From contig JBBSJG010000003.1 in assembly GCA_038257485.1 (NCBI GenBank), positions 1 through 49,659 on the forward strand: a DNA stretch of 49,659 nt, in the 5' to 3' direction. The position numbers and the translations under genes were made by a program. The notes beneath the pieces are model-generated. The model saw nothing but the letters and a program-made list of their open reading frames with translations, had not been told where the DNA came from and made no database searches. This stretch comes from Longimicrobiales bacterium. Lineage in GTDB: Bacteria > Gemmatimonadota > Gemmatimonadetes > Longimicrobiales > RSA9. Numbering within the stretch: the first letter of the stretch is position 1; each line of letters opens with the position of its first letter. Shown in pieces: positions 8,570 to 25,646 of the stretch.

Positions 8570-9757
8570 CTAATGACGCAGTTGCGCGGCCCAACTGCCG
8601 AGTAGCGCACGTTCTTCGTCCGTGATCCATGTCTGGTTGGCGGGCGGCATGGTCTTCGTCGTAACCGCCCTGGCTTCAATGCGTGCGGCCATTGCACGCA
8701 CTGCCTCCGGCGTATCGAACGACACGCCGGCCGCGGGCGCACCGAACGCGCGGTTCGACGGCGATACGGAGTGACAGACGGCGCAGCGCTTTTGGATGAC
8801 TGCATAGCCGTCGTCGAATGTCACTACTTGATCAACGCGCACGGAGGACCCGCTTGCGGGCGACGACGGTAGCGTCAGGATATGGAGCGCGCCGAGTGTC
8901 GCGAGCATGGTCGCGGCGAGCGCGGGTTTCCATGCGCCGAAACTCCATCGCGTATTCAGGATGTGACGAATCCCGGCACCACCAACGATCAGCACACCGA
9001 GCACGGCCCAGCCCCAGCGACCGCTGTAAAGCGTGGGGAAATGACTGCTCAACATCAGCGCGATCACGGGGAACGTCATGTAGTTGTTGTGAATCGAACG
9101 CAGCTTCGCGGCAGCGGCGAGTCGTTCATCGACCGGTTGGCCCGCTTCCATCGCGGCCACGAATGAGCGCTGCGCTGCCATGATGTGGAAGCGGACATTG
9201 CCCGCCATGACCGTTCCCATCAGCGCACCGACGTGCAGGAACGCGGCGCGGCCGGTGAACAGACGGCCGAGCAGGAAGCCGAGCGCGAGAACCAGGACGA
9301 GACACAACACCGCGGCCACAGCGGTGTGACGACGGAGCGGCGACCGCCAGATCGCTTCATAGGTCAGCCACCCAGCGAGCAGCGCGCCAATGCCGACGGC
9401 CGACGCGGCTGCGGCTGACAGGCCGGACGCGGGGTTGACGAGGAGCGCACCGCCCGTCGCGTAGTACACTGCGACAAGTAGCGCTGCACCGCTCAGCCAC
9501 GTCGTATAGGCCTGCCACTTGAACCAGTGGGGCGAGCGCGGCGATACGTCACCAAGCGCGAGCGTCTTCTCCACGTGGTAGAATGCGCCGCTGTGCAGCA
9601 GCCACGTTTCGCCAAAGCTGCGATCCCTCGCCTCGGCCGCAGGCCGCAGGTTGCGGTCGAGCCAGTTGAACAGCAGTGAGTTGCCGACCCACATGATTGC
9701 GGCAACCACATGGATCCAGCGCAGTGCGATATCGAGAAGTTCGACCAGCGCGCGCAT
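8570..9757 (-). CDS. puuD: Membrane urate oxidase/hydroxylase with C-terminal cytochrome c
   Basis: RWIHVVAAIMWVG, HWFKWQAYTTWLSG, RSIHNNYMTFP, multiple TM helices, CxxCH (CAVCH), MPP.N.T.IT.EER. Confidence 0.9.
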   Translation of the reverse strand: MRALVELLDIALRWIHVVAAIMWVGNSLLFNWLDRNLRPAAEARDRSFGETWLLHSGAFYHVEKTLALGDVSPRSPHWFKWQAYTTWLSGAALLVAVYYATGGALLVNPASGLSAAAASAVGIGALLAGWLTYEAIWRSPLRRHTAVAAVLCLVLVLALGFLLGRLFTGRAAFLHVGALMGTVMAGNVRFHIMAAQRSFVAAMEAGQPVDERLAAAAKLRSIHNNYMTFPVIALMLSSHFPTLYSGRWGWAVLGVLIVGGAGIRHILNTRWSFGAWKPALAATMLATLGALHILTLPSSPASGSSVRVDQVVTFDDGYAVIQKRCAVCHSVSPSNRAFGAPAAGVSFDTPEAVRAMAARIEARAVTTKTMPPANQTWITDEERALLGSWAAQLRH

Positions 9758-9767
9758 TACGGCACCC

Positions 9768-10130
9768 TCAACTGCCGCGGTACGTGCTGAAGCCGAACGG
9801 ACTGAGCAGCAGCGGCACATGATAGTGCGCAGTACTGTCCCGTACGTCGAAATCGATGGTCACCGCGGGATAGAAGGCCTCGACGTGCTGCTGTTCGAAG
9901 TACGCCCCCGTCGCGAAATGCATGCGGTACGTTCCCGCGCTCAGCTGCGACCCCTCGGCAGCCAGATCGCTGCAGCGGCCGTCCGCATCGGTGGTGCCCC
10001 GTCCGATGACCGTGGTCCCGCCGCCGGCGCCGCCGGCGCCGTCGACAGACGACAGCGTCACTGCGACACCGGCCGCGGGACGCCCGATCGAGGTGTCCAG
10101 CACGTGTGTAGTGATCGTGATTGCGTTCAT
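9768..10130 (-). CDS. uraH: 5-hydroxyisourate hydrolase (transthyretin-like)
   Basis: ITTHVLD, DGR, HYHVPLLLSPFGFSTYRGS C-terminus. Confidence 0.95.
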   Translation of the reverse strand: MNAITITTHVLDTSIGRPAAGVAVTLSSVDGAGGAGGGTTVIGRGTTDADGRCSDLAAEGSQLSAGTYRMHFATGAYFEQQHVEAFYPAVTIDFDVRDSTAHYHVPLLLSPFGFSTYRGS

Positions 10131-10657
10131 GATCTCAGCATCTTCTCCAGTCGCAGTCGCGTGATCCTGCGTTGCTCTTCCGCGGCCACGCGCAGCTCGG
10201 TGTCGGCGTCGTTTTCGAGGCGGGAGCCCAGCGCTTCCAGAATTTCGGCGGCCGATTTCCCCGTTGCGCAGATCAGGAAGATGTGGCCGAACTTTCCTTC
10301 GTACTCCTGCTGCGCGGCGGTGAGCGACACGCGGTGTGATTCATCCGCACTCGCCGTGGCGGCCGCCTGTTCGCCTGCCGCCCATTGCCGTTGCGTCGCG
10401 GTTGCCGTTGCGTCGGTCTCGCCCGTACGTTCGCCGATGCGCGGATGGCCGTCGAATGCGTCACGCCATGCGTAAGCGCCCAGTCGCTGCCATGTCACGT
10501 CCGCGGAATCGAGCAGTGCGCCCACGTCGCGGTACGGCCGCTGTGCAGCCATTGCCTGCGCCCAGGCCAGCGATGCGCAGCACTGGCGCAGCTCCGCGAC
10601 GGCCTCTGCATCAGGCAGCGCATTCAGCCGTGCGACCGCAGCGGCCTCATCCGCCAA
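10127..10657 (-). CDS. uraD: OHCU decarboxylase
   Basis: LNAL, HPRIG, EQ, YE.KFGHIFLICATGK, RL.ND...E...A..EQ..IT.LRL. Probable TTG start at 10657 with GGAG 9 nt upstream. Confidence 0.9.
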   Translation of the reverse strand: MADEAAAVARLNALPDAEAVAELRQCCASLAWAQAMAAQRPYRDVGALLDSADVTWQRLGAYAWRDAFDGHPRIGERTGETDATATATQRQWAAGEQAAATASADESHRVSLTAAQQEYEGKFGHIFLICATGKSAAEILEALGSRLENDADTELRVAAEEQRRITRLRLEKMLRS

Positions 10658-11642
10658 GTACAGGCACTCCGAATAGGCGCAGGCGAGCGACACCGCCGTC
10701 CGGGTGAATATTCAGCCTTGCATGGGACGCAGTCGGGGCCTCGCGACTCACGCGGTCGACGAAGTCATGGACGGTGTGAGCCATGAGTGACGTGAGCTGC
10801 AGGATCGTCTGCCATTCTGCATCCGCTGGCGGAACCTCCACCGCACTGTCACACACCTCGATCGAGCAGCTTCCCGGAGCATTGCCCTTGAAGTGGGACG
10901 TGTCGATCACGGCACGCCGGATCTGACCGCGCGCACCCAGCCGCACGATCGCCCAGTCGTGGCCGGGACCACGCCGCCGCTTCGTCTCCCAGCCGTCGTG
11001 CATGCCGAGCGGTTGGCCCGGCATGATCATGTTTACGGGATTGCCGTAGTGCTCATCACTGCATTGCACGACGCGGCCACCGTGCTCCACCGCGGCCAGG
11101 TCGAGCTCGCCGCCGCCGCGGTGCAGTGACCACCACTCGGGCAGAACCACACCATGCACGCGCAACCGCGCGACACCACCATCGGGAAAGATGTTGAGGC
11201 GGAGGTGCGTGAACTTCTGCGACGGACTGATCTCGAAGAGGTTGCGGTCGTTGCCGCGAAGCGGCGACTGCGGCAGGATCTCGGTCCACGTCACACGGTC
11301 CCCCGTGAGCGTTGCCTCATCCGCAAAGCCGTCCACGGTGCAGCCCTCTATGGAGCAGGACTCCGGATAGTTGCCGGTGAAGAACGCCGTGTCCACGACA
11401 ACACCGTGAATCCGGCCGGGCAGGCCGAGTCTAACAATGCACCAGTCGTAGCCAGGTGAACGGCGACGGCGAGTCTCCCAGCCGTCCATCCACTTGCCAC
11501 GCTCTGTATACTCGCCCTCGCGCCATTCCGGCTGCGACGCACGCACGAGGTTCTCCTTCGGTGCGAAGAACTCGTCGTTCGTGAACAGCGCCGCGCCGCC
11601 GAGTCGTTCGCTCGCCAGATCGATCAGTTGTGTGAATTCCAT
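10647..11642 (-). CDS. alc: Allantoicase
   Basis: Two allantoicase repeats: DEFFA, DGWETRRRR / DGWETKRRR, PDGGVARLR twice. Confidence 0.95.
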   Translation of the reverse strand: MEFTQLIDLASERLGGAALFTNDEFFAPKENLVRASQPEWREGEYTERGKWMDGWETRRRRSPGYDWCIVRLGLPGRIHGVVVDTAFFTGNYPESCSIEGCTVDGFADEATLTGDRVTWTEILPQSPLRGNDRNLFEISPSQKFTHLRLNIFPDGGVARLRVHGVVLPEWWSLHRGGGELDLAAVEHGGRVVQCSDEHYGNPVNMIMPGQPLGMHDGWETKRRRGPGHDWAIVRLGARGQIRRAVIDTSHFKGNAPGSCSIEVCDSAVEVPPADAEWQTILQLTSLMAHTVHDFVDRVSREAPTASHARLNIHPDGGVARLRLFGVPVLGG

Positions 11643-12988
11643 GGGATCCCGTCCTCAGTCCTGTTCAGCAGCCGGCCGTGCGCAGACGCAACGGCATCGG
11701 TATGCACGATTTCACCGCGCAGATACGTCGCGCGCACTGCACCGGTGAGTGATTCGCCGTCGTATGGTGTCAGCTTGTGGCGGTGATGAAGCCGCCGCGC
11801 ATCCACCGTCCATTCCGCATCCGGATCGAACACCACGAAGTCGGCATCCCGCCCCGGCGCGATCACGCCCTTCGCCGGCAACCCCGCCAGCCGTGCGGGC
11901 GCCTCGCACATCCACGTGGCGACCTGGTGCAGCGTGACACCTCGCGCGCGCGCATCACTCCATACCACCGGCAGTGCGAGCTGCAGCGACGCGATGCCAC
12001 CCCACGCGTTCAGGAACGTCCCGTCGTCGACACACTTCAACGATGGCGGCGAGGGGGAGTGGTCACTCGCGATGAGGTCGAGGGCGCCATCGATCAGGCC
12101 AGCCCAGAGCGCGTCACGATTCGAGGCCGACCGGATCGGCGGTGCACACTTGTATGCGGTGCCACCGTCCGCAATGCCGTCGCATTCGAAATGCAGGTAG
12201 TGCGGGCATGTCTCGGCCGTGAACGGCAGTCCTTCCGCACTCGCCGCGCGCAGCAGTGGCAGAACGTGCTCGCTCGCGACGTGCACGACGTGCATCCGCA
12301 CACGTGTTTCACGACACAGGTCGATCAACAGCCGCACCGCTTCCACTTCCGCGGCGTCCGGGCGGGTCGCGAGGTACGTCGCGTAGCAGCGAGGATCACC
12401 ATCGGCGGCCAACACGAGATGCGACGGCAGTTCCGCGTGCACCAGCAGCGGTGCGCCGAGGCGCGCGAGGATCGGAAGCGCGCGTACGAGGTCCGGCGCG
12501 TCCACGTGCTCGAACTCCTCCACACCGGGCGGCGACAGGAAGCACTTGAAGCCGAGCACGCCGCCGTCCCACAACGGCTCGAGTTCCGACGTGTTGCCCG
12601 GAACGACACCGCCCCAGAAGCCGACATCGACAGTGCAGTTGCCGTGTGCAGCAGCGCGCTTCGCTTCGAGGCCCGCGAGCGTTGTCGTCGCAGGAACACT
12701 GTTCAGCGGCATATCGACGAGCGTGGTAATCCCGCCTGCAGCTGCGGCAAGTGTGCCGCTGGCGAAGCCTTCCCATTCCGAACGACCGGGGTCGTTCAGG
12801 TGGACGTGCGTATCCACCAGACCCGGCATCAGTGCGGAGTCGCCGATATCGATGCAATGCACACCCGTTGCCACATAGTCGAAGGACTCGACGGCGGTGA
12901 TGACGCCGTCGCATACAACAACACTTGCGGCCGCTACGCCGGATGGCAGCACGACGCGCCGACTGCGGAACACGACGTCCGCAGCCAT
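11624..12988 (-). CDS. allB: Allantoinase (amidohydrolase)
   Basis: PGLVDTHVH, EWEGF, GGITT.VDMPLNS, HAE, ETCPHYL, KCAPPIR, SDHSP; pathway context. Confidence 0.93.
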   Translation of the reverse strand: MAADVVFRSRRVVLPSGVAAASVVVCDGVITAVESFDYVATGVHCIDIGDSALMPGLVDTHVHLNDPGRSEWEGFASGTLAAAAGGITTLVDMPLNSVPATTTLAGLEAKRAAAHGNCTVDVGFWGGVVPGNTSELEPLWDGGVLGFKCFLSPPGVEEFEHVDAPDLVRALPILARLGAPLLVHAELPSHLVLAADGDPRCYATYLATRPDAAEVEAVRLLIDLCRETRVRMHVVHVASEHVLPLLRAASAEGLPFTAETCPHYLHFECDGIADGGTAYKCAPPIRSASNRDALWAGLIDGALDLIASDHSPSPPSLKCVDDGTFLNAWGGIASLQLALPVVWSDARARGVTLHQVATWMCEAPARLAGLPAKGVIAPGRDADFVVFDPDAEWTVDARRLHHRHKLTPYDGESLTGAVRATYLRGEIVHTDAVASAHGRLLNRTEDGIPWNSHN

Positions 12989-13809
12989 CAGGCTGTCTCT
13001 GCGAGGAAGCGGCGCAGCAGGTTCGCGGCAACCGTGCGGCGGTATTCAGCGCTCGACCGGATATCGTCGATAGGCGAGATCTCCGACATCATCGCGCGCA
13101 CGACGTCGTCATCGGTACCGCCATCCATCAGTACGCGCTCAGCCGCGTGCAATCGCACGACTGTCGGCGCCACGCTGCCGATTGCGATGCGGGGCGACGG
13201 TCCGCGCACGCCGGCGATGACGATCTTCGAGATCGCCTGTGCTGCACGCGTTCCAACCTTCCGGAACCATTGCGTGCCCTCGACCGCCGGCACTTCGATC
13301 GAGCGGATCAGTTCGCCGGGCTGAATCACATTCGTGCGATAGCCCGTGTAGAATTCTGCGAACGGGACGCGCCGCTCGCCATCGCGATGCGCGAGCACGA
13401 TGACCGCCTCCGCGGCCGCGAACACCGGCAGTGTGTCGCCTGCGGGCGAACCATTCGCGATGTTGCCCGCGAGTGTGCCCCGGTTCTGGATCTGGACACC
13501 GCCGATCTCGCGGCACGCTGCGACCAGCATCGGCAGCTGCCGCTGCACCGCTTCCGACGCCACCACTTCGCTGTGCGTGCACAGTGCGCCGAACCGCAGC
13601 ACATCGTCCGTCGCCTCCACGCCGCTCAGCTCCGGAAGGCCCCAGATGTCGATGAACGATCGCGCTGTGACGGTATTGAAGTTCAGGCCGACATACACGT
13701 CAGTGCATCCCGCGATCGGCATGAGCGATGGTGTGTCCGCGAGTCGATCCAGCGCTTCCTCGAAGGACACCGGCCGAACCAGCTCGAGCGGTGAGATCGC
13801 GCTCCTCAT
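12988..13809 (-). CDS. Xanthine dehydrogenase family FAD-binding subunit (PucC/CoxM-like)
   Basis: AGCTD, IQNRGTLAGNIANGSPAGD, PIDDIRSSAEYR. The ATG at 13809 overlaps the FeS-subunit stop. Confidence 0.9.
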   Translation of the reverse strand: MRSAISPLELVRPVSFEEALDRLADTPSLMPIAGCTDVYVGLNFNTVTARSFIDIWGLPELSGVEATDDVLRFGALCTHSEVVASEAVQRQLPMLVAACREIGGVQIQNRGTLAGNIANGSPAGDTLPVFAAAEAVIVLAHRDGERRVPFAEFYTGYRTNVIQPGELIRSIEVPAVEGTQWFRKVGTRAAQAISKIVIAGVRGPSPRIAIGSVAPTVVRLHAAERVLMDGGTDDDVVRAMMSEISPIDDIRSSAEYRRTVAANLLRRFLAETA

Positions 13810-14264
13810 GGCGCACCGCCGGCATCGGCGAAACCGGTGGGATCGACAGCCCGGATGGCGCGGTAGATCGCTTCGTAGCCCGTGCAGCGGCAGATGTTGC
13901 CCGCGAGTCGCGTCCGGATCTCTTCGATCGGTGCGGACGGGTCGATGTCGAGTGCGGCGAGGATCATTCCGGGCGTGCAGATGCCGCACTGTGCACCGCC
14001 ATGTTCGATGAATGCCTGCTGGAGCGGATGATCGGTGCTGATCCCTTCGATCGTCGTGATCGCCGCATCCTCGACCTGCGCGACGGGAACCAGGCATGCG
14101 CACACGGGCTCGCCTTCCACCAGTACCGTACACGCCCCGCACTCACCCTCGCCGCAACCCTCCTTCGTACCTGTGAGGCCGAGGTCCTCGCGCAGTACGT
14201 CGAGCAGGCGCGACATCGGGTGCACGTCGACGTCATAGTCCACACCATTCACACGGAGCTGCAC
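13806..14264 (-). CDS. Xanthine dehydrogenase family 2x[2Fe-2S] subunit (PucE/CoxS-like)
   Basis: GTKEGCGEGECGACTV, QCGICTPG, GNICRCTGY. Confidence 0.95.
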   Translation of the reverse strand: MQLRVNGVDYDVDVHPMSRLLDVLREDLGLTGTKEGCGEGECGACTVLVEGEPVCACLVPVAQVEDAAITTIEGISTDHPLQQAFIEHGGAQCGICTPGMILAALDIDPSAPIEEIRTRLAGNICRCTGYEAIYRAIRAVDPTGFADAGGAP

Positions 14265-14708: not shown

Positions 14709-16532
14709 CTACATGCCGACGCAGGCGCTGGATGCCGAGGTTCCGTCTCCGGAGCCGCTCATGCTCGATGTGCCCCGTTCCACCGTTGCCGTATACCCGC
14801 CGCCCGGCGTTCCCGGCGTGCGGAAGGTGATGGTTCCGTTCCCGTCCGTGCGGTACCACGGAATCCCCAGATCCGTCATCAGTGTCTTCGTCTGTGTGTT
14901 CACATGGCCGAAGCTGTTGGTGGCGCTGACACCGATGGCGATCCACTCCGGTGACAAGAGCTGCAGGTAGCGGCGGGAAACACCGTTGCAGCTGCCGTGA
15001 TGGTCCGCCTTCAGCACCGTGACGTCCATACCAGGCGCCATGTCGTACTCAGCTCCCGCATCGAACCAGTCGATTGCCGCATGCTCCGCGTCGCCGGCGA
15101 ACCACATCGAAAAGCTCGCCGAATCAGGGCCGACCAGCTTCACGCCGCCACTTCGATTGTTCGGCGTGCTCCCATTCGGGTCGGGCCGCAGCAGGTGCAG
15201 CCGGGCGCCTCCCGCCATCGTGATCGTGCAGGTAGGAGCACCTGTCACGCAGGGATCATCCGTGTCGCGGTAGATCAACTGCCCGCGACCAACTCGCGCA
15301 TTGATCGAATCGCGAAGTTCCGCCAGCGTGACGGCGGTGCCGGCGTCCTTGTTCTCGAACAAGTACCGGATCGTGATTCCGCGCGTCGTCTTGAACAGCT
15401 CCCGCAGGCCGCTGTAATGGTCGGCATGAGCGTGCGAAATGACCACGACATCGATCGTTGTGTTGTTCAGTCCCATGGCATCGAGGTGCGCGCCCATCGA
15501 TGTCACGCTCGGGCCGCCATCGATGAAGATTTTGCTCACGCCGTCCGTGATGTATGTGGCATCACCCTGTCCGATATCCAGCACACGAACCACCAGATCG
15601 CCCGGTGTTCCGCCGCCCCCACCGCCGGCTGCTTCCACCGTGACCGACGCCTCGCCCCAGACGCCGTTCGCGGCCGTTGCACGGATCTGAGCCGTTCCCA
15701 CGGCCACCGCTGTCGCCATGCCGCTCCCGCTCACGGTAGCAACCGCACTGTTCGAACTGCTCCACGTGAACGTGGTCGCCACCGCATTGCCACTCGCATC
15801 CACCGCGGACGCTGTGAACTGCTGCGTGCCGCCCGGCGCGAGCGTTGCCCCCGGAGGCGTCACCGTAACGACCGCAGGCGTGGATGACACCGCGTACCCG
15901 TCGTTCCTGGCGCCCGGCGTGCCACGGTCGCCGCCCTTGCCGAACGTGGATGTCGCGGGGTGCCAGTTCGTGCCACCCACATTCGTATTGTCCGCCGTCG
16001 GATTCGTTACGCCGCGCGTGGAACCCGCCGGCATGGCCGACCATGATACAGAATCCACCATCGCGCCCGTACCATCCCGCAGAACGACCCAGTCCGATCC
16101 ATTGGCCAGGACAATCCCAGTACCATACGCGTACGCATTGGTGATCCCGCCATTTCGCTTCGACGCCGATACTCTCGCCAGCACCTTGTGGCCGCCGGCT
16201 GCAATACTCAATGTCCCGATTGTGTGCGTCGCATCATTGCTCGACTCCAGCTTCCATCCAGCCATGTTCACCGAGGCGGTACCCGAATTGTAGATCTCGA
16301 TCCATTCGCCATTGTCATCCGTTACCGCCGACGGATCCGCCATCACCTCATTGATGATGATGCCCGACCCGCTTACCACACTCGCGAGCGGTCGACCTCC
16401 ACCCGGCGCGGAAACCGGTGCCACGACCAGCTCGGTGCATGTAGCGAGGATGAACGGAAGACCGAGAACGATGTACAAGAGGGCACTGCGTGCGAATCGA
16501 ACTTTTGGGGCGGATCCCAGGTTCTGCTGCAT
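14709..16532 (-). CDS. Secreted lamin-tail domain + Ig-like (Big_2) + ComEC/Rec2-type metallo-beta-lactamase-fold hydrolase (putative nuclease/phosphodiesterase), lipoprotein
   Basis: Lipobox-like LATC; IINEVMADP/GEWIEIYN/GTPGA.N (LTD); TWSSSN..VATVS..G (Big_2); DIGQGD, SHAHADHYSG, GDAE, HHGS, N.FGH (ComEC-type MBL). Confidence 0.85.
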   Translation of the reverse strand: MQQNLGSAPKVRFARSALLYIVLGLPFILATCTELVVAPVSAPGGGRPLASVVSGSGIIINEVMADPSAVTDDNGEWIEIYNSGTASVNMAGWKLESSNDATHTIGTLSIAAGGHKVLARVSASKRNGGITNAYAYGTGIVLANGSDWVVLRDGTGAMVDSVSWSAMPAGSTRGVTNPTADNTNVGGTNWHPATSTFGKGGDRGTPGARNDGYAVSSTPAVVTVTPPGATLAPGGTQQFTASAVDASGNAVATTFTWSSSNSAVATVSGSGMATAVAVGTAQIRATAANGVWGEASVTVEAAGGGGGGTPGDLVVRVLDIGQGDATYITDGVSKIFIDGGPSVTSMGAHLDAMGLNNTTIDVVVISHAHADHYSGLRELFKTTRGITIRYLFENKDAGTAVTLAELRDSINARVGRGQLIYRDTDDPCVTGAPTCTITMAGGARLHLLRPDPNGSTPNNRSGGVKLVGPDSASFSMWFAGDAEHAAIDWFDAGAEYDMAPGMDVTVLKADHHGSCNGVSRRYLQLLSPEWIAIGVSATNSFGHVNTQTKTLMTDLGIPWYRTDGNGTITFRTPGTPGGGYTATVERGTSSMSGSGDGTSASSACVGM

Positions 16533-16614: not shown

Positions 16615-19110
16615 TCATGCATGGGCCGATCGCCGTCCGGCGGCCTCCATGATGCGATCAGGTGTCGCGGGCAGCGTCCGGATGTCGATGCCGAGGTGGC
16701 GGATTGCATTGATGACAGCGGGCGCAGGCCCGTCGATCGGCAGCTCGCCCAGACCCTTGGCGCCCATCGGGCCGTGACGATAGGGCCGTTCCATGATCAC
16801 GACATCCATGGTGGGCGTGTCGAGTGTCGTCGGCACGATGTAGTTGGTGAGCGATGCATTGGCCATCGCGCCGTCCCGCATTACGACCTCCTCGAGCAGC
16901 GCATAGCCAAGTCCCTGTGCCGTACCGCCCTCGATCTGGCCGCGCACCATGACGGGATTGATCGCGCGCCCGATCTCCTGCACCGCAGTGAAGTGGATCG
17001 GCCTGACTTCGAACGTATCGCGATCCAGTTCGACTTCCGCGATGTCGCACGCCCACGCGTATGTGCCGTACGCGTCGCCTACATAGTTGACTTCATCGAA
17101 CTGCAGACCGAGCGGTGCCTCGTATTCCTGTTCGATGTGCAGCGGTCCGTTCTGCGCGAAGTGATCGGCGGGATCCATGCCGTCGAGCTGTTCGCGCATC
17201 TGTTCCGCGCAGCGCTGGAGGATGCGCCCGACCACCATGCACGTGCGGGATGCGACGGTGGGCCCGCTGTTCGGCACGTTGTCGGTGTCCGGATGCTCGA
17301 CGGCGATGCGGTCGAACGGCAGTCCGAGGGTATCCGCCACGATCTGCGCGTGCGTCGTGTGCGAGCCCTGCCCGATCTCGACAGTGCCGGCGAGGATGCG
17401 CACGCCCGTGGCGGTCGTCTCCACCGCGGCGCGCGATGCCAGCTTCCGTTCGCCGTCACCCGTGAACCCCGCGCCGTGAAAGAACAGTGCGAGGCCGATG
17501 CCGCGATTGGTCCCGCGCAGCGAGGCGCGCTTTGCGTGGTACCCACTGCGCTCCACCGCTTCGCGCAGTACATCGAGTGCACTGCCATCGGGACCGATGG
17601 TGCCGCCGGTGATCGTCGTATCACCCGGCCGGAGCGCATTGTGCTCGCGCAGCGCGACACTGTCCATGTCGAGTGCCTCGGCAATCCGCTCCATATGCGC
17701 TTCGATCGCGAACAGTGTCTGCGGTGCGCCGAACCCGCGGAACGCGCCGTTCGGCGGTGTATTGGTCATCATCGCTCGCCCGATCACGCGCACGTTGTCG
17801 CAGCGATACGGACCGCCGCAGTGCAATGCACCGCGCGACAGGACGACCGGCGTGAGCGTCGTGTAAGCGCCGCCGTCCACGAGGATGTCCACGTCCAGCG
17901 CCGTGATGGTACCGTCTCGACGGAGGCCGGTGCGATGCCGCACGCGGAACGGGTGCCGCTTCGTCGTTGCCAGCATGTCCTCAACGCGGTCATACACCAT
18001 CTTCACCGGGCGCCCCGACTTGAGTGCCAGGAGTGCTGCGTGGCACGCAAGCATTGAGGGATACTCCTCCTTGCCGCCGAACCCGCCACCTGTCGCACTC
18101 TGCACCACGCGCAGCCGTTCATCCGGCAACCCGAGCAGCACACGCAGCGCGCGCATCACGTAGTACGGACACTGCAGCGAACCGTGAATCGTGATCCCAC
18201 CATTCTCGGGCACCGCGATCACGCCGTTCGGCTCGATGTACAGCTGTTCCTGGTGACCCGTACTGTACTCACCCTCCACGATGAAGTCGGCGGCCGCGAG
18301 CGCGGCATCGACATCCCCGCGGTCGATGCGCATTCGCTTCAGCTCGACATCCGATTGTGTATAGTCCAGGATCGCGGGCTGCGTGTCGACGTCGATTTCG
18401 ACGACAGCCGCATGCAGTCGCTCCCGATCCTCGTGCGCAAGCAGCAGTACCGGCTCCGCCATGTGACGAATCTCGCGCTCGACCAGACACGGCTGATCGT
18501 CTTCGATCAGCGAGATCACGTTCAGTGCAGGGATGTCGCGGTAGTCGACAGTCGTGAAGCCCTCCGTGTCGGAAGCACTCGAACGAATCGACCGGACTGT
18601 CCCCCTGGCCGTTGCAGAGCGGATCGTGCGGCCGAAGATCATCCCCGGAAAGACCAGGTCGTCCACGTACTTCGCCGCACCGCTCGTCTTCAGCAGTCCG
18701 TCGATGCGCTCCATGGCACGGCCAACGGACGGAGCATCCAGTGCCGGGGTGACCGGAACGCGAAAAATGCCGTGCAGTGTGCTACGCGTGTCACCAGCGA
18801 CGCAATCCACGATGTCGAGGAAGACGCCCGCCGTCTCCGCATCGCGTTCCTCGAGCATTTCGAGATCGCGGAAGACCAGCATGCACGGGCGAGCGCCGGC
18901 GTCCTCCGGCCCGTACAGCGCGTCCTGCAGTGCGTCCCAGTTGAAACCGAAATGCGCAGGCAGCGGGATCGCCTGGTAGAGCGCGTGCAGCAATGATGCC
19001 TTGTCGAACACAGGCGCGCGGTCGACCCATGCCGCGTCGAAACCCGCGGCGCGCAGCGCATCGACCGCTGTGACGACGTCCTCTACGGATGGGACTGCAC
19101 GCACCATCAT
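16615..19110 (-). CDS. Barstar-like domain fused to xanthine dehydrogenase family molybdopterin-binding subunit (PucD/CoxL-like)
   Basis: aa ~1-115 carry the barstar signature DKASLL......LP.HFGFNWDALQDAL. From SVGRAMERIDG..K..G.A.YVDD onward are Mo-subunit motifs GGGFGGKE, GAFRGFG.PQ, EIGQG, GPTVASR, GQIEGG..QG.G.AL, GAKGLGE. Confidence 0.9.
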   Translation of the reverse strand: MMVRAVPSVEDVVTAVDALRAAGFDAAWVDRAPVFDKASLLHALYQAIPLPAHFGFNWDALQDALYGPEDAGARPCMLVFRDLEMLEERDAETAGVFLDIVDCVAGDTRSTLHGIFRVPVTPALDAPSVGRAMERIDGLLKTSGAAKYVDDLVFPGMIFGRTIRSATARGTVRSIRSSASDTEGFTTVDYRDIPALNVISLIEDDQPCLVEREIRHMAEPVLLLAHEDRERLHAAVVEIDVDTQPAILDYTQSDVELKRMRIDRGDVDAALAAADFIVEGEYSTGHQEQLYIEPNGVIAVPENGGITIHGSLQCPYYVMRALRVLLGLPDERLRVVQSATGGGFGGKEEYPSMLACHAALLALKSGRPVKMVYDRVEDMLATTKRHPFRVRHRTGLRRDGTITALDVDILVDGGAYTTLTPVVLSRGALHCGGPYRCDNVRVIGRAMMTNTPPNGAFRGFGAPQTLFAIEAHMERIAEALDMDSVALREHNALRPGDTTITGGTIGPDGSALDVLREAVERSGYHAKRASLRGTNRGIGLALFFHGAGFTGDGERKLASRAAVETTATGVRILAGTVEIGQGSHTTHAQIVADTLGLPFDRIAVEHPDTDNVPNSGPTVASRTCMVVGRILQRCAEQMREQLDGMDPADHFAQNGPLHIEQEYEAPLGLQFDEVNYVGDAYGTYAWACDIAEVELDRDTFEVRPIHFTAVQEIGRAINPVMVRGQIEGGTAQGLGYALLEEVVMRDGAMANASLTNYIVPTTLDTPTMDVVIMERPYRHGPMGAKGLGELPIDGPAPAVINAIRHLGIDIRTLPATPDRIMEAAGRRSAHA

Positions 19111-19559
19111 CGGATCCTGCGGAAACTGGCGTAATGGTCCGACGTGTAGAACACCTCGCCGCCCCCGCCCAGCACCAGACGCTGCGGGCCCGCGTGGTCG
19201 ACGCCCTCCGTGCGGATCACATATTCGTGGTAGTACCCGCCGCGCTGCACGGGCAGGAGCCCCTCGCGATTAGCGAAGACGCCGCCATCATTGCGGTGTC
19301 CGTCCCGCTCGCCCGACGTCGCACGCGCCACCTCCGGCGCCAGGTCGACGTCGCCACGCCATGCCACGCGGCCGTCGATGTCCCGGACCGTGACGTCCCG
19401 CACCACGAGTTCGTCCGCGGGCGACTGCGGAACCGGACCCTGATCCGCCGCCGTGCGCGACTGGACCGGCGCCGAAGGCGTGCCCGGTTCGTACGACCGC
19501 TGGACCCACAGTGCGACGATGATCGCGATGACGACGGCGACGATCTTGAGAGGTTTCAT
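19107..19559 (-). CDS. Secreted/anchored microbial guanyl-specific ribonuclease (barnase/RNase Sa, N1/T1 family)
   Basis: Hydrophobic N-terminal signal; F.NREGLLP, YYHEY (Glu), RLV.G (Arg), YTSDHY.SF (His). Its stop overlaps the start of the barstar fusion. Confidence 0.9.
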   Translation of the reverse strand: MKPLKIVAVVIAIIVALWVQRSYEPGTPSAPVQSRTAADQGPVPQSPADELVVRDVTVRDIDGRVAWRGDVDLAPEVARATSGERDGHRNDGGVFANREGLLPVQRGGYYHEYVIRTEGVDHAGPQRLVLGGGGEVFYTSDHYASFRRIR

Positions 19560-19661
19560 CCGTTCAACGTGGGCAGTACCGGCGCGGACGCGCAAGACGC
19601 ACCACGGATCGAATCGTGCACACTATGCGGGCATGACGGCAACAACGGCACGGAGAATACA

Positions 19662-20301: not shown

Positions 20302-20571
20302 ATGACCTGGAAAATCAGGGAAGTGGCCGCCGGTGAGTTCAAGGCAAAGTGTCTTCAGCTCATGGACGAGGTGAACGCCAGCGGCGTGGAGCTGGTGATC
20401 ACCAAGCGAGGCAAGCCGGTCGCGAAGCTTGTGCCGATGGCGGAGCCGAAACCCGCTATGGTCTGGGGTGCGATGAAGGACCGTACGCACCTCGCCGATG
20501 GCATCGACCTCGTCAGTACGGACCCGACGGAGTGGCCGGACGATCTGGAGGACCATGAATGCTGGTGGTGA
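20302..20571 (+). CDS. vapB: Type II antitoxin, Phd/YefM family
   Basis: AGEFKAKCL.LMDEV...G.E.VITKRGKPVAKLVP. Confidence 0.9.
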   Translation: MTWKIREVAAGEFKAKCLQLMDEVNASGVELVITKRGKPVAKLVPMAEPKPAMVWGAMKDRTHLADGIDLVSTDPTEWPDDLEDHECWW

Positions 20572-20989
20572 GGCGCTGCTTCTCGACACGCACATGTTCC
20601 TGTGGCTGGTCACCGGGATGCCGGGTACCGCATCCCGGCGGTCCTGGCAGTTGATCAAGGCAGCCGCTCAACGCAATGCGCTCGCAGTGAGTGAGATCAC
20701 ATTCTGGGAGATCGCGGTCAAATCACGAAAGAAGCGACTCCACCTCGAGCCGGACACGAACACATGGCTGGCGGACGCGGCGAGGCTCCCGGGCATCGGC
20801 GTGATAACGCTCGACCGCTCCGTACTGATTGAAAGCGCGCTCCTGGAGATCCCGAGCCGTGACCCTGCCGACCGCATGCTGGTTGCGACGGCACTTCGCT
20901 ATGACCTGCGGCTGGCAACTGCCGACGCAGATGTCATCGAGGGCGCACGCTTCGTGCACCGCATGCGCGTGCTGGATGTGCGCGCGTAA
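20555..20989 (+). CDS. vapC: Type II toxin, PIN domain
   Basis: LLDTH..LW, S.ITFWEIA.K, DPADRMLVATA, L.TAD; overlaps the antitoxin end. Confidence 0.9.
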   Translation: MNAGGEALLLDTHMFLWLVTGMPGTASRRSWQLIKAAAQRNALAVSEITFWEIAVKSRKKRLHLEPDTNTWLADAARLPGIGVITLDRSVLIESALLEIPSRDPADRMLVATALRYDLRLATADADVIEGARFVHRMRVLDVRA

Positions 20990-21012: not shown

Positions 21013-23685
21013 CTACTGGTCTTCCGTAAAGCTGCTCGCCAGTGCACCGAAGTCAATCGGTGATCGCGCACGCGCTCCCGGACCGCTACCCGGGTTTCGA
21101 GAATCCGACAGTGGCGCAGTGACAGGACGGAATACATCTCCGTCCCTCTCCAGCACTCCGGAATCCAGCAGCTCATCCATTGCGTCCTCGACATCGCGTT
21201 GAAATGAGCCAGGAAGGCGGCGCAGGACCTCGCTGACGGTCAACCCGTCAGCAGGAAAGGTATTCACTTCGGAAGCCACACGGCTGTAATCGTGGATGAT
21301 CGGGGTGAAGAGCGCGGTCACCACCTGGTGCGACAACAGGTTATCGCCTGCAACGCGCGGCGCCACCCAGAACCCGTTTCTGCGCACGTGGGCGCGTACG
21401 GCCCATTCGTCGCCGAATCGTTTCATTGCATCGTCATAGAACAGATGCATCCATTGCGCGTCGAACGTGCGCCGAATCTGGTCCGGCACTTCGTATGCCC
21501 CCTCCAGGCCGCTGTCGAGCACCATCCCGCCACGCCGCTCGATTTCCGATCGGAGCGCGCGCAAATCGATGTTCGCATTGGCGTGCGCAGCACAGAATGC
21601 CCGCAGGTGGAACGACGTCGCGACGGTATTCTTCTGAAGCGCTGCCATCAGGTCCCGGCTGAGCTCCCGCACGTCCGTGGACGCGTCGAGCGGGAGTGGC
21701 GCGCCACACCGGATATGGATGCGCCCCATCTGCACTCGCCCTCGCATCAGATCCCCGACCCAGCGGGCGAGCTGTACGAGCCGACCGGTATGCCTCGGGC
21801 CGCCTTCCAACTCACGCAGGAACCCGGATTCCTCTGCAACGCGGTCGTATGTGATGGAGAGCGGCAGCACAACCGCGCTCCTGCCCGTTCCCTGCACTGC
21901 GCGCAGGACGCCTCGCTTTGCGGGACGAAAACGTCGCGACCGGCTCCGCATCCCCTCAGGATAGAACGCCAATGAATGGCCCTCGCTCACCAGCGTACCA
22001 AGCTTTTCGTTTAGAGCGGGGTCGGGCTTGCCCGCGCCGCGCCGGATGAAAAAAGCGCCGGCCGCTTTCAGGACGTGTCCGACGAATGGGATATGTGCGA
22101 AGTCATCGGTTGCAGCAACGCGGGGCAGACGCAGTCCGATCCCGGGATGCGCGAAACAGAGCAGCGACGTCACCATGAAGTCCATGTAGCTGCGGTGCGT
22201 CGGTGCCAGCACGAGCACGTCGTCGGGACCCGTCTCGCGCAACGCTGCCTCGATCGCCATCTCGTCGAATGTGATCTCGATCCCGGCGAGTCGAATCACT
22301 TTGCGCATGCAGTACGCAAGTGCCCGTGATACCAGGTTGCCGTGTGGCTGCCGCAGCGCCCAGGCCGCATCCATGCCGTGCATCTGCAGCGGCGCGACGC
22401 GCGGGTCGCGTTTAAGCAGATGCTGTGATATGCCAGCCGAAACGGTCTGGATGTAGGAACGGACGTCGAACCCCTCGAGCGGCGGGAACGACGATTGGAA
22501 GTCGAAATCGAGATGTCTGAAGTAGTGAAAGCCGCTGTCCAGTGACCGAAGTGCGTCCTGCACCCGGCGGATCCGCTTTTGCTCACCGCGCTGCTTCCGC
22601 AACCGTGCGACAAATCCGGCGACGCGCAATGGCATACTGTGGTACAGCAACTCATTGACGCGAAACAGAAACGCCGACTTGCCGCGGTACCTTAACCGCG
22701 CGGGACGTTCGTGCGGATGCGCCTGAAAATATAGCTGGTGCCTGGACAGGTCGTCGAACGTGGCGGTCTGATCACGACCCGCGACCGCGTGACGCACGAT
22801 CATGGGTTGCTGCTGCCGCGGATCGAACGCGCAAGCCAGGATGCGGTCTGCGACATCGTCGCACGGCACAATGTCCGCCCGTACGTCGAGGTCGACTTTC
22901 ACAGCACGCAGATATCCTGCGCCGAGCAAAGCGACAAACGCCGCGTAGGCCGCGCGACTGTCGATCCATCCGGGAAAGGGGAAGCGGCGACAGGCGGATA
23001 TGATACTGGGTCGGACAATGGTGAGGGGCACATCGCCGCGGCGCTGCGACAGCAGTACTTCGGCAATGCACTTCGTGAGCGTATAGGTGTTCGGCTGCCG
23101 TGCTGCCGACAGAAGCGCGGGTTCGTCCGCTGAGCCATCGAGAATCGCAGCATACACCGCGTCCGCATCGAACGGCGGCGCGACCAGGGACTCGACAATG
23201 GGAACGTCCGCACCGGGATGCGGTGTCACATACGCCGTGGATACCGCGACGAGCCGCGGGACTGCAACACAACGCTGCGCGAACGCCAGCACATTCAATG
23301 CACCTGTGATGTTGGCCCGTGCCGCGGCGCCCAGACTCAGGTCGAACTGTACGGACGCCGCGCAGTGAATCACATGCGTGACCCTTTGCTGCAGTCGTTC
23401 CGCCTCCTCGTCCGCAAGGCCCAGGTCATGCTGCGTAATATCACCCGTCACGGGATGACACAGCTCGGTCCAACCGGACTCGAGCCGTTCGAAACAGGGT
23501 GACGAAGCGACTTCCTTCTCGAAGCGGTGCCCTGCTGTTCTTCGGCCTCGCGGCCGGATCACAACGTACACTTCTTCGAGGCCCAGCTCGTGTCGCCTCC
23601 GGACCAGCTCGCTGAGCACAACCTTACCGACGAAGCCGGTACCGCCCGTGAGCAGGACTCGAACGCCACGCGACGTACCGGTCAT
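21013..23685 (-). CDS. Fatty acyl-CoA reductase (male-sterility type) fused to glycerone-phosphate/glycerol-3-phosphate acyltransferase (FARAT-like)
   Basis: N-terminal TGGTGFVGK, HCAASVQF, VSTAYV, NTYTLTK (YxxxK), RPSII, PFPGWID. C-terminal PTHRSYMDF, GAFFIRR, FYPEG.RSRS, PLSITYDRV.E. Confidence 0.88.
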   Translation of the reverse strand: MTGTSRGVRVLLTGGTGFVGKVVLSELVRRRHELGLEEVYVVIRPRGRRTAGHRFEKEVASSPCFERLESGWTELCHPVTGDITQHDLGLADEEAERLQQRVTHVIHCAASVQFDLSLGAAARANITGALNVLAFAQRCVAVPRLVAVSTAYVTPHPGADVPIVESLVAPPFDADAVYAAILDGSADEPALLSAARQPNTYTLTKCIAEVLLSQRRGDVPLTIVRPSIISACRRFPFPGWIDSRAAYAAFVALLGAGYLRAVKVDLDVRADIVPCDDVADRILACAFDPRQQQPMIVRHAVAGRDQTATFDDLSRHQLYFQAHPHERPARLRYRGKSAFLFRVNELLYHSMPLRVAGFVARLRKQRGEQKRIRRVQDALRSLDSGFHYFRHLDFDFQSSFPPLEGFDVRSYIQTVSAGISQHLLKRDPRVAPLQMHGMDAAWALRQPHGNLVSRALAYCMRKVIRLAGIEITFDEMAIEAALRETGPDDVLVLAPTHRSYMDFMVTSLLCFAHPGIGLRLPRVAATDDFAHIPFVGHVLKAAGAFFIRRGAGKPDPALNEKLGTLVSEGHSLAFYPEGMRSRSRRFRPAKRGVLRAVQGTGRSAVVLPLSITYDRVAEESGFLRELEGGPRHTGRLVQLARWVGDLMRGRVQMGRIHIRCGAPLPLDASTDVRELSRDLMAALQKNTVATSFHLRAFCAAHANANIDLRALRSEIERRGGMVLDSGLEGAYEVPDQIRRTFDAQWMHLFYDDAMKRFGDEWAVRAHVRRNGFWVAPRVAGDNLLSHQVVTALFTPIIHDYSRVASEVNTFPADGLTVSEVLRRLPGSFQRDVEDAMDELLDSGVLERDGDVFRPVTAPLSDSRNPGSGPGARARSPIDFGALASSFTEDQ

Positions 23686-25646
23686 CCTGCTACGTCCCCC
23701 GTGCTTTCAGCACGATGCAATTCGGACTGAGCCGGGAAGACACCATCAGGGTCGAGCGCGGATTTCATGCGCGCACGCCATTCCATGCTCGCTGGTGACA
23801 TGATCTGAGGAATGAAGGGCATCCGGAGCTTGCCGACGCCGTGGTGATGCGAGAGCGAACCGCCCGCGTCGAGGATCTCCTGTCTCGCCAGGTTCTCGAT
23901 CTCGTGGTACGCGCCAATCGCGTCGTCGATGCCACGACCGTAGAACGCCATGTAGAAGTATACACAGCAGCCGGTCTCATAGACCTGCGTCACGCGACAC
24001 GAAACGAACGGGTTGCCGGGCAGGCCCCGCTCCCGGTGTGCGGCAAGAATTCTCGACTTGACGCGCTCGATGAGCGCACCTGCTCGACTCCAGGGCACGG
24101 ACGTCTCGAATGACTCCGCAACAATTCCATGGTGAAGAATGAAGTCGCGGATGTATGCGATCCCGAAGGTCAGCATGTAGCCCCGCCTGCCATTCTCCGC
24201 GCCGCCATTCAATCCGCGATGCCGCCGGGCAAGGCTGTGCATTCGTCGCTGCTGGTCTGCCACTTCCCTGCGCGTGCCTTCGAACACCATGGTCACCGCG
24301 ACCATCTTCTCGACATCGAATCCGAGCGGACCCGTGACAAGCCATCGCTCGGCATCCCCTCGCATGCGCTTCACGCCGCGCGGCCGCGGTTTCAGAGCCT
24401 GACCGAACTGAAATTGCAGGTTGTCCACGAGACGCACGGACGCGGGCGGCTGTGCCTCTTGCGCACAATCGTACATGAACGCAAGGCCGTCTTCGAAGCT
24501 GCGGAACAGGAGCGACGCATACTTCCGCTCGGCTGGCAGCGGAAAGAGCTTGACGACGGCGGACGTGATGATCCCCAGCATTCCTTCGCTGCCGATCATC
24601 CATTGGCGAGGATCGATGCCGATGCTTTCGCGCGGCACTGCATGCGCGCGCGTCAGACGACCAGCTGTCGTCACGACCGTCATGTCGAGCACCAGGTCCT
24701 CGATGTTGCCATACCGGTTCTTCTTCATGCCACTGGCGTTCGTGGCGATCCACCCACCGAGTGTGGAGAACTCGAAGCTGTCCGGCTCGTGGCCCATGGT
24801 GAACCCGTATTGCTCGAGCTGCGCCTGGATCTGACGCCCCGTGGCACCCGCCTGGATGCACGCCATGCGGTCGACCGGGTCGATCCACTCGATCCGGTTC
24901 ATCCGTGACATGTCGACAGAAACGATTGTGCGCGTTTCTTCGGGCAGGCAGCGGAGCGCCTCGGTCACATTGGTGCCGCCGCCGTATGCGGACAGGACCG
25001 CGCCATGCTCGACCGCCAGCACCACCAGGGACGATACCTGCGATTCCTCAAGCGGGAACACAACACAGTCCGGGATGCGCGGAAACCCGGACGACCGGAT
25101 GGCATCCATCTCGGCAACGGTATGCCCGTGGCCATGCCGAAGTCTCGTGGTATCATCTGTTGTCACCTGGCCAGCGCCGAAGATCCCGGCCAGCGCCTGG
25201 ATGAACGCGGGCGAGGCCGCACTTCGTGGAATCGGCGGCGGATATCCGATCGCCCCGGTCTCGACCTGCCCCTCGTCGACCGGAAAATCAACGCCGATGA
25301 CCCGGCGGAACCACGGCAGAAGCGAGGATAGCACTTCACCGCTGAGGCCCGGATAGCGATTTCCCGACACAGTGAGGTTCCCTCCGTCGAGACCGAATGA
25401 TGTGTCTGCGAAACCCCAGCCATCGGGACGGATCGCGTCCTCATCTGCCCCAACCGCCGGTAGGCTGGGCGGATCGATGCGCCTCGGCCTCACGTCTGTA
25501 TTAGGTATTCCCGCAATTGGTGACGAACGCTTCAAGATGCTCTCCAACTTCACATGTGGGTCCTCGAGACAGCCTGTTGGCCGGCTCGAGACCGGCCGGT
25601 CATTGTCGGAGATCGGAGACCCCAATGCAACATCCGCGCTCCCCAT
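23682..25646 (-). CDS. Alkyl-dihydroxyacetonephosphate synthase (FAD-linked, AGPS/ADPS)
   Basis: GWGF.D..F, HGHT, YGGGTNV, GHEPDSFEFSTLGGWI.T.ASGMKKN.YGNIEDLV, PASVRLVDN.QFQFGQAL, ESFETSVPW, CRVTQ.Y..G.CVYFY, GSLSHHHGVGKLR. Start uncertain (25646 or about 25556). Confidence 0.92.
   Translation of the reverse strand: MGSADVALGSPISDNDRPVSSRPTGCLEDPHVKLESILKRSSPIAGIPNTDVRPRRIDPPSLPAVGADEDAIRPDGWGFADTSFGLDGGNLTVSGNRYPGLSGEVLSSLLPWFRRVIGVDFPVDEGQVETGAIGYPPPIPRSAASPAFIQALAGIFGAGQVTTDDTTRLRHGHGHTVAEMDAIRSSGFPRIPDCVVFPLEESQVSSLVVLAVEHGAVLSAYGGGTNVTEALRCLPEETRTIVSVDMSRMNRIEWIDPVDRMACIQAGATGRQIQAQLEQYGFTMGHEPDSFEFSTLGGWIATNASGMKKNRYGNIEDLVLDMTVVTTAGRLTRAHAVPRESIGIDPRQWMIGSEGMLGIITSAVVKLFPLPAERKYASLLFRSFEDGLAFMYDCAQEAQPPASVRLVDNLQFQFGQALKPRPRGVKRMRGDAERWLVTGPLGFDVEKMVAVTMVFEGTRREVADQQRRMHSLARRHRGLNGGAENGRRGYMLTFGIAYIRDFILHHGIVAESFETSVPWSRAGALIERVKSRILAAHRERGLPGNPFVSCRVTQVYETGCCVYFYMAFYGRGIDDAIGAYHEIENLARQEILDAGGSLSHHHGVGKLRMPFIPQIMSPASMEWRARMKSALDPDGVFPAQSELHRAESTGDVAG

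Follow-up and report, generated by a model that had tools for sequence, protein, structure and literature searches.

An open reading frame joining barstar to a xanthine dehydrogenase molybdenum-binding subunit, directly behind an RNase gene, in a metagenome-assembled Longimicrobiales genome

Results

Organization of the fused reading frame

The stretch of DNA analysed here (the window) is a whole contig from a Longimicrobiales bacterium, JBBSJG010000003.1, with a length of 49,659 bases in the depositor record. It is contig C3 of a metagenome-assembled genome (MAG), G000, which contains 536 contigs and 3.81 Mb with an N50 of 14 kb, and is 92.5% complete and 4.7% contaminated. On the minus strand of the window, a ribonuclease (RNase) gene overlaps a single open reading frame (ORF) of 831 amino acids (aa), whose product contains, in this order, a complete Barstar inhibitor domain, a linker of at most 7 residues, and a complete molybdenum (Mo)-binding subunit of xanthine dehydrogenase (XDH). 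The features of this region are listed below.

19107..19595, minus strand: RNase ORF, 162 aa as a mechanical ORF from TTG 19595 (ORF list)
19107..19559, minus strand: RNase gene, 150 aa from ATG 19559 (Pfam, depositor record)
19113-19337, minus strand: RNase Sa-like catalytic domain (Pfam PF00545)
19107..19110, minus strand: ATGA overlap of the RNase stop with the start of the fusion ORF, 4 nucleotides (nt) (sequence)
16615..19110, minus strand: Barstar-XDH Mo-subunit ORF, 831 aa (ORF list and Pfam)
18751..19110, minus strand: barstar domain, complete, residues 1-120 (Pfam, alignments, complex model)
18763-18767, minus strand: run of five T in the last strand of barstar, just upstream of the linker (sequence)
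18730..18750, minus strand: linker TPALDAP, residues 121-127, free of stop codons and of ATG, GTG and TTG
16615..18729, minus strand: XDH Mo-binding subunit part, residues 128-831 (Pfam, alignments)
18712-18714, minus strand: M133, which may serve as an internal start; no in-frame start codon precedes it within the XDH part
18385-18684, minus strand: hammerhead domain (Pfam)
17635-18330, minus strand: MoCoBD_1 (Pfam)
16813-17559, minus strand: MoCoBD_2 (Pfam)

The initial annotation of this DNA, made from the sequence alone, had proposed that barstar and an XDH subunit are fused in frame. A Pfam profile search of the 831-aa product bears this out, with Barstar (residues 34-107), Ald_Xan_dh_C (143-242), MoCoBD_1 (261-492), and MoCoBD_2 (518-766) all found in the one ORF and above their cut-offs. 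In the window sequence there is no in-frame stop codon between the Barstar and XDH domains, and no in-frame ATG, GTG or TTG between the barstar domain and M133. The codons of TRSTLHGIFRVPVTPALDAP hold none of these three start codons, so that the linker lacks TTG in addition to the ATG and GTG reported missing at first. The junction-spanning peptide of the product is VPVTPALDAPSVGR. The depositor annotation likewise gives a single intact coding sequence, of 830 aa and starting at the second ATG of the fusion ORF, and on the same contig takes the RNase as 150 aa from ATG 19559. No gap separates the coding sequences of RNase, inhibitor domain, and XDH subunit, and the ATGA overlap of the RNase and fusion frames suggests translational coupling. 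In the assembled sequence, translation of the barstar domain necessarily continues into XDH. The early idea that immunity is physically tied to XDH agrees with this layout, in which the inhibitor is made only as part of the XDH subunit.

The RNase and its inhibitor domain

The RNase product matches the Ribonuclease family PF00545 (E 1.1e-14, 55.2 bits against a cut-off of 24). Its N-terminus is hydrophobic (MKPLKIVAVVIAIIVALWV) and is followed by a spacer rich in Pro, Ala, and Ser and then by the catalytic domain. The closest solved relatives are RNases Sa3, Sa2, and Sa (E 1.6e-15 to 1e-13), the best being RNase Sa3 (1mgr, 1.6e-15); barnase (E about 1e-3) and binase are more distant. The gene had been called a barnase-type RNase, which is right at the level of the family, as barnase and RNase Sa share PF00545, and wrong for the nearest type, as RNases Sa3, Sa2, and Sa are all closer than barnase. 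The Glu, Arg, and His that had been noted in this overlapping upstream gene are E124, R139, and H154. They are invariant in all four aligned RNases from RNase-barstar cassettes, and E124 aligns with the Glu of the RNase Sa motif YYHEY, R139 with an Arg, and H154 with the His of DHY. We take these residues to be catalytic. A hydrophobic N-terminal stretch and a low-complexity spacer precede the catalytic domain in all four of these RNases, and export of the window RNase is therefore likely.

The N-terminal part of the fusion product scores as barstar, as had been proposed, with E 4.4e-13 and 49.4 bits against a cut-off of 23.4 (PF01337), and with 53.6 bits in the genome search. In an alignment with Bacillus barstar (1ab7/1brs), D35 and D39 align to D59 and D63 of the window protein. 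D35 and D39 belong to the acidic helix with which the Bacillus protein binds its RNase. D59 is invariant in 22 of 22 aligned barstar sequences. All 21 stand-alone relatives in the alignment end with a short hydrophobic strand just past STL[HR]G, and the window equivalent of this terminal strand is GIFRVPV, residues 114-120. Because this is the strand after which the stand-alone relatives stop, the inhibitor domain is complete in the fusion. The barstar sequence lies directly behind a PF00545 RNase gene, with the 4-nt overlap, a layout common to a same-genus comparison genome (G001, 82% complete), a Trueperaceae MAG (L019), and a Chloroflexia MAG (L020). It is not a small stand-alone protein, since its ORF has 831 aa.

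A complex between RNase residues 61-162 and barstar residues 1-127 was modelled. Each of the three runs scored 0.88, against 0.02 for the best of three controls. The 0.88 mark is reached by 58 of 80 solved complexes and by 2 of 110 mismatched pairs; these counts are rough because custom alignments were used. At least 95% of contacts agree among the runs, the partner pLDDT (predicted local distance difference test) is at least 82, and D59 and D63 contact E124, R139, and H154. The model supports RNase-barstar binding. We note that such a pass demonstrates likeness, perhaps memory, and not binding, because similar complexes are already solved (1ay7, 1brs).

The XDH part and its N-terminus

The XDH part is best aligned to the Mo fragment of bovine xanthine oxidase (chain C, E 5.7e-75), starting from bovine residue 573. 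Bovine Q767, E802, R880, R912, and E1261 are identical here, as Q313, E348, R426, R458, and E789. The cut-offs of the NCBIfam equivalogs are not reached (pucD, 468 against 783.65; XdhA_XDHase, 361.6 against 780), and we therefore classify the protein, from its gene neighbours and its active-site residues, as an XDH-type subunit rather than as an equivalog of PucD or XdhA. It had been described as a complete PucD/CoxL-type subunit; the XDH identity stands, on the active site and the operon.

The native xdh ATG lies 10 codons before the R.DG motif in six of nine orthologues (MTPAVGR, MIPAVGR, MDATVGR), and at -15 in G001 and -16 in genome G012. The window reads DAPSVGR at -10 to -4, with GAT, GTC, and CCG at -10, -15, and -16. 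With DAPSVGR at the native start position, the XDH part is complete from its native N-terminus except for a start codon, and barstar likewise is missing nothing but its stop codon. The true linker is then at most TPALDAP, and DAP may already be the N-terminus of XDH. Methionine is found at the position of M133 in none of the nine orthologues, which have H, I or V instead. No Shine-Dalgarno-like run precedes M133; such a run is absent from most genes of this operon. A scan for promoters and terminators gave nothing above shuffled expectation.

Unfused relatives

In G001, an RNase of 133 aa is followed by a stand-alone barstar of 119 aa with its own stop, ending ...STLHGLVRAGA-TAG, and the two frames overlap in the same manner as those of the window. 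The xdh orthologue of G001 (87% identity) lies on another contig and has its own ATG (MIENPPPPIVGTAHPRLDG), with the iron-sulphur (FeS) and flavin adenine dinucleotide (FAD) subunit genes directly after it. L019 and L020 carry an RNase and a stand-alone barstar (52-54% identity), also unfused. The stand-alone barstars have 119-150 aa in G001, L019, and L020, and 88-171 aa in the other aligned relatives. Orthologues of xdh are found at 63-87% identity in 8 related genomes, plus one partial orthologue at 70%, and their upstream context differs in genomes G013 and G012.

Few relatives of G000 have the cassette: at E <= 0.001 it is found in 3 of 41 genomes, of which one is a doubtful case. A barstar match in genome G019 (E 2.6e-4) has no convincing ORF and was not counted. 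The spread of the cassette is patchy across phyla, which suggests its horizontal transfer. The unpublished genomes G018 and G026 are counted in the tallies over 41 genomes, for the cassette and for the LTD-MBL gene described below, and in the tally of xdh orthologues, and G026 also in the phylum tally of Barstar (401 genomes); none of the specific claims depends on either genome.

Searches for the architecture elsewhere

In a word-indexed protein search, a related barstar part in a protein of 457-1455 aa was found for none of 583 candidates. A HMMER search of 1.84 billion representatives, with the barstar part (127 aa) as the query, found 198 hits at E <= 0.001. Among the best 150 of these, 148 are 60-187 aa long, and two are 328 and 338 aa. 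These two (P0098 and P0105, respectively) carry Barstar followed by Glycolipid_bind (PF06475) and belong to two separate 50%-identity clusters. A natural and recurrent N-terminal barstar fusion therefore exists, with Glycolipid_bind as the partner and not XDH. Among the best 120 of 163 fragments spanning residues 91-250, none contains Barstar and none exceeds 69% identity, and their coverage is confined to the XDH part.

Barstar matches were found in 11 of 401 genomes of the phylum. The open frame that holds the match is 884 aa long in G000, and the 12 matches in other genomes are in frames of 98-319 aa. Metagenome contigs scanned with barstar peptides yielded no relatives among 432 pattern matches, and a scan with a degenerate pattern for the xdh 5' end yielded no matches. 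A JGI fragment with 92% identity (P0154, in the same 90% cluster) covers residues 362-822 only, so that the junction lies outside it. In a full-text literature search, no hit described a barstar-XDH fusion in its title or the start of its abstract, in agreement with the early remark that such a fusion had not been described. The fusion is a singleton among the databases and genomes surveyed, a new domain architecture from two well-known families that is seen once.

Breakpoints and rearrangement at the junction

The DNA homology to the G001 barstar ends at window position 18769, and the homology to the G001 xdh resumes at 18675 on the DNA level and at about 18729 on the protein level. About 30 bases between the two match neither G001 flank. 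RNase, barstar, and xdh are each single-copy in G000. The join preserves strand and reading frame and is a few codons at most from either gene end. No informative repeat was found at the junction, whether the window or the remainder of the G000 genome was compared.

An ABC ATPase gene beside the G001 RNase matches window positions 25669-26766 (75% at the protein level). The neighbourhoods of the cassette are therefore related in G000 and G001, with about 6 kb extra in between in the window. The barstar-side and xdh-side contig ends of G001 both map to the end of G000 contig C14, and the 4.5 kb upstream of the G001 xdh map to G000 contig C104. From this, the order in G001 is probably ABC, RNase, barstar, a regulator and kinase block, xdh, FeS, and FAD. 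The spacer block of G001 contains an AraC-type response regulator and a large hybrid sensor kinase, which are convergent, plus a hypothetical gene; barstar and xdh share a strand there, and the distance between them is probably about 5.5 kb. On the path from C14 to C104 in G000, the kinase block is flanked by a T2SSE-receiver ATPase on one side and by KaiC and a PAS kinase on the other, and these flanks are on small contigs, or not found, in G001. Three G000 contigs agree on the rearranged order, and no mobile-element genes were found at the borders of the kinase block. The flanks of the kinase block and the upstream context of xdh differ among genomes. The region is thus prone to rearrangement, and the spacer of G001 is missing at this position in G000. 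We also observed that the locus where C14 and C104 overlap carries the sensor-kinase block that adjoins xdh in G001, and that two strains are suggested there.

Coverage was checked with Logan contigs; no RNA run was among those listed. In run X1, at a depth of about 5x, the fraction of sampled words present is 0.82. One X1 piece stops at 18739 and the next begins at 18838. These two make up the entire X1 depth of their bin, which leaves 18740-18837 without X1 cover; similar gaps occur elsewhere in the stretch, and this gap therefore speaks neither for nor against the junction. A 170-nt contig of run X4 fits 18599-18739 with 2 differences, and its other 29 letters fit nothing here. Pieces from two runs thus stop fitting at the same base, 18739, one before codon D125, at whose position most xdh orthologues have their start codon. 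This may be a weak hint of a breakpoint, either the xdh-side breakpoint or a strain branch.

The purine-catabolism operon and its neighbourhood

The genes behind the fusion ORF are the following.

14709..16532, minus strand: gene with LTD, Big_2, and metallo-beta-lactamase-fold (MBL) domains, 607 aa, lipoprotein-like N-terminus (Pfam)
13806..14264, minus strand: XDH [2Fe-2S] subunit gene (Fer2_2 and Fer2), syntenic in G001, G013, and G012
12988..13809, minus strand: XDH FAD subunit gene, 273 aa from ATG 13809, with an ATGA overlap with the FeS gene (FAD_binding_5, CO_deh_flav_C)
11624-12988, minus strand: amidohydrolase, allantoinase-like (Pfam)
10647-11642, minus strand: allantoicase (Pfam)
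10127-10693, minus strand: OHCU decarboxylase (Pfam)
8570-9820, minus strand: PuuD-type urate oxidase (Urate_ox_N) with a cytochrome c domain (Pfam)

The FeS and FAD subunit genes and the genes from urate to allantoate lie on the same strand as the fusion ORF. Together with the active-site residues, this marks the enzyme as a true xanthine dehydrogenase, encoded at the front of a uricolysis operon. The remainder of the operon, 8570..12988, is syntenic with G013 down to about 9400. The cytochrome c-like C-terminal stretch of the PuuD-type urate oxidase scores below the Pfam cut-off.

The LTD-MBL gene is an insertion that separates the gene of the XDH Mo subunit from that of the FeS subunit. It is absent at this position in G001, G013, and G012, where the FeS gene comes directly after the Mo gene, and the 2.35-kb segment that carries it (16641 to 14285) is a second insertion relative to these three genomes. 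Relatives of the LTD-MBL gene are sporadic, in 11 of 41 genomes at E <= 1e-20 and mostly as partial matches. Its product is possibly an exported nuclease.

Upstream of the RNase gene, and divergent from it, are genes for an FMN reductase and a Phd/YefM-PIN pair, with ether-lipid-like genes and an ABC importer further out. The pair consists of a Phd/YefM antitoxin and a PIN-domain toxin with overlapping frames (20302-20989, plus strand), inside the roughly 6 kb missing from G001. At 21013-25646 on the minus strand, an 890-aa fusion of NAD_binding_4 (fatty-acyl reductase type) and an acyltransferase adjoins a 654-aa FAD_binding_4/FAD-oxidase_C protein. This pair resembles bacterial ether-lipid genes of the alkyl-DHAP synthase type.

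Discussion

We are fairly confident that the junction is real. With more reserve, we favour the view that it is a recent, lineage-specific in-frame fusion which arose by rearrangement and in which both halves are functional in one chain. A rearrangement would have brought xdh, with its 5' end, into direct contact with the 3' end of the barstar gene in an RNase-barstar cassette, and only the stop codon of barstar and the start codon of xdh would have been lost. The N-terminal barstar domain would bind through the helix with D59 and D63 and neutralise RNase that folds in the cytoplasm before export, and the remainder would join its FeS and FAD partners to form an ordinary xanthine dehydrogenase. 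The chief effect would be on regulation: the frames for RNase, inhibitor, and XDH, probably with those of the entire purine operon, would follow one another without a break, by overlap or by fusion. Purine oxidation would be expressed from the signals of the RNase gene, and the inhibitor would not be made without starting the XDH subunit. The native promoter region of xdh (140 nt in G001) is gone, so the purine operon would depend on signals upstream of or within the RNase-barstar genes. We infer the function of both halves in the fusion, the co-transcription, and the route by which the junction originated.

Several points weigh against this reading. Barstar and xdh are separate genes in G001, a genome of the same genus. 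The architecture is known once, from a MAG of 536 contigs, and the junction rests on that assembly; independent sequence holding the junction was not found in the protein, metagenome-contig or fragment searches. The tail of C14 overlaps the end of C104 over 361 nt at only 94.7% identity, which indicates strain mixture in the bin. Within the protein, barstar residues 109-111, near the junction, are part of the modelled RNase interface, and the linker of at most 7 residues is so short that there may be steric trouble with the XDH body.

Most of these points would also fit an assembly artefact, in which two loci of one genome, or of a closely related co-occurring genome, were wrongly joined and the genes are truly separate, as in G001. 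The MAG is fragmented and has signs of strain mixture at the overlapping contig ends, the architecture is a singleton for which the searches found no independent junction sequence, and skipping the block of about 5.5 kb between the same-strand genes of G001 would give this very join. However, there is no repeat at the junction for an assembler to jump across, and a graph assembler invents no bases, whereas about 30 junction bases match neither G001 flank. The join also keeps both gene ends and the frame, and a random misjoin would rarely respect gene ends, strand, and frame together. Moreover, the kinase block of G000 has other flanks, on contigs that run well past it, and the G001 arrangement is absent from G000. 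The initial annotation had named as grounds for rejecting the fusion that all relatives have separate genes and that the fusion is a singleton artefact; the genes are separate in the relatives compared and the fusion is a singleton, and that it is an artefact seems rather unlikely to us. A smaller error of the same kind, in base calling or consensus, could hide a stop or a frameshift between what are really two genes, for example in the run of five T, whose position at 18763-18767 is as given initially. This homopolymer is 13 bases from the linker, and with one base fewer the barstar frame would end 30 codons later at TGA. We rejected an indel in this run as the explanation, since with either indel xdh would still have no start codon before M133, and barstar would gain an unnatural tail overlapping xdh or have no stop at all. 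The run lies within the conserved last barstar strand and reads correctly as assembled, and there are no indels where the Logan contigs cover. We regard such a hidden error as very improbable.

If the fusion is real, its activities may still be split, with XDH made mainly from M133 or released by cleavage of the linker, or with one half impaired. Close to the native N-terminus, M133 is the sole start codon, and none of the orthologues compared shares it, a start there would remove only about 8-14 residues ahead of the first Pfam domain, and the missing Shine-Dalgarno run means little as most genes of the operon have none; the very short linker could hinder assembly. On the other side, no sequence signal marks M133 as a start, all checked functional residues are kept in both halves with no frameshift or stop, and the conserved SVGR segment, which precedes M133, keeps its frame. 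A split of this kind therefore appears distinctly unlikely. A more far-reaching version of a functional fusion starts from the idea that the RNase and LTD-MBL genes, both inserted in the uricolysis operon of this genome only, serve nucleic-acid scavenging that feeds purine catabolism. The fusion, with both halves working, would then be part of a new operon for scavenging RNA and DNA, in which an exported RNase, its immunity, and the enzyme that oxidises the released purines come from one message in a fixed order and each XDH holoenzyme carries RNase-docking modules, which we think is unlikely. The early suggestions that the fusion makes the cell addicted to xdh, or gives XDH a regulatory RNase-binding module, are not borne out. 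The linkage is neither conserved nor recurrent, the genes are unfused in G001, L019, and L020, no relative of XDH length was found, and the fusion is not conserved even within the genus; we saw no evidence that it was selected for addiction or regulation. With unfused relatives and no recurrence, a recent accident of rearrangement fits better than a selected design.

If the favoured reading of a recent functional fusion is true, this would be a natural immunity protein fused to a core catabolic enzyme and caught soon after its origin, and operon rearrangement would be able to create a new multidomain protein end to end. The fusion offers a simple test of barstar function with a 700-residue enzyme on its C-terminus. 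The case is also a caution, as gene fusion alone is weak ground for inferring a functional linkage. That an RNase gene and a nuclease-like gene lie together with the genes of purine oxidation suggests a link between nucleic-acid scavenging and uricolysis in this soil lineage, which is testable. If the junction is an artefact, it would be a useful example of a plausible in-frame chimera in a MAG.

Comparison with known systems

The RNase Sa-barstar and barnase-barstar modules (1ay7, 1brs) share with the window a PF00545 RNase with Glu, Arg, and His, an overlapping downstream inhibitor gene, and a helix with two Asp residues. Unlike in these modules, the window inhibitor has no stop and continues into an enzyme of 704 residues, and the RNase has a hydrophobic N-terminus and a long spacer. 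The barstar subfamily of the window is longer at the N-terminus than Bacillus barstar. With the three-subunit bacterial XDH of the PucD/XdhA type, the window enzyme shares the domain order, active-site residues, partner subunit genes, and purine neighbours. It differs in that its Mo subunit has no start codon of its own and carries a barstar extension of 127 residues, in the extra LTD-MBL gene between the Mo and FeS genes, and in scores far below the equivalog cut-offs.

The Barstar and Glycolipid_bind proteins likewise have an N-terminal barstar followed in frame by an unrelated domain. The partner domain differs, and that fusion recurs, in two clusters, whereas the XDH fusion is seen once. 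In the eukaryotic single-chain xanthine oxidoreductase, the Mo domain likewise carries N-terminal domains, and it is at bovine residue 573, where the Mo fragment starts, that the alignment to the window protein begins. The eukaryotic enzyme has its own FeS and FAD domains there, on a long linker, while in the window protein an unrelated inhibitor is attached through 7 linker residues at most. We take the eukaryotic enzyme, from its structure, to be a natural precedent for N-terminal attachment at the start of the Mo fragment. Because the eukaryotic Mo domain carries its FeS and FAD domains at the same point, attachment of a further domain to the N-terminus of the Mo subunit is, by analogy, plausible.

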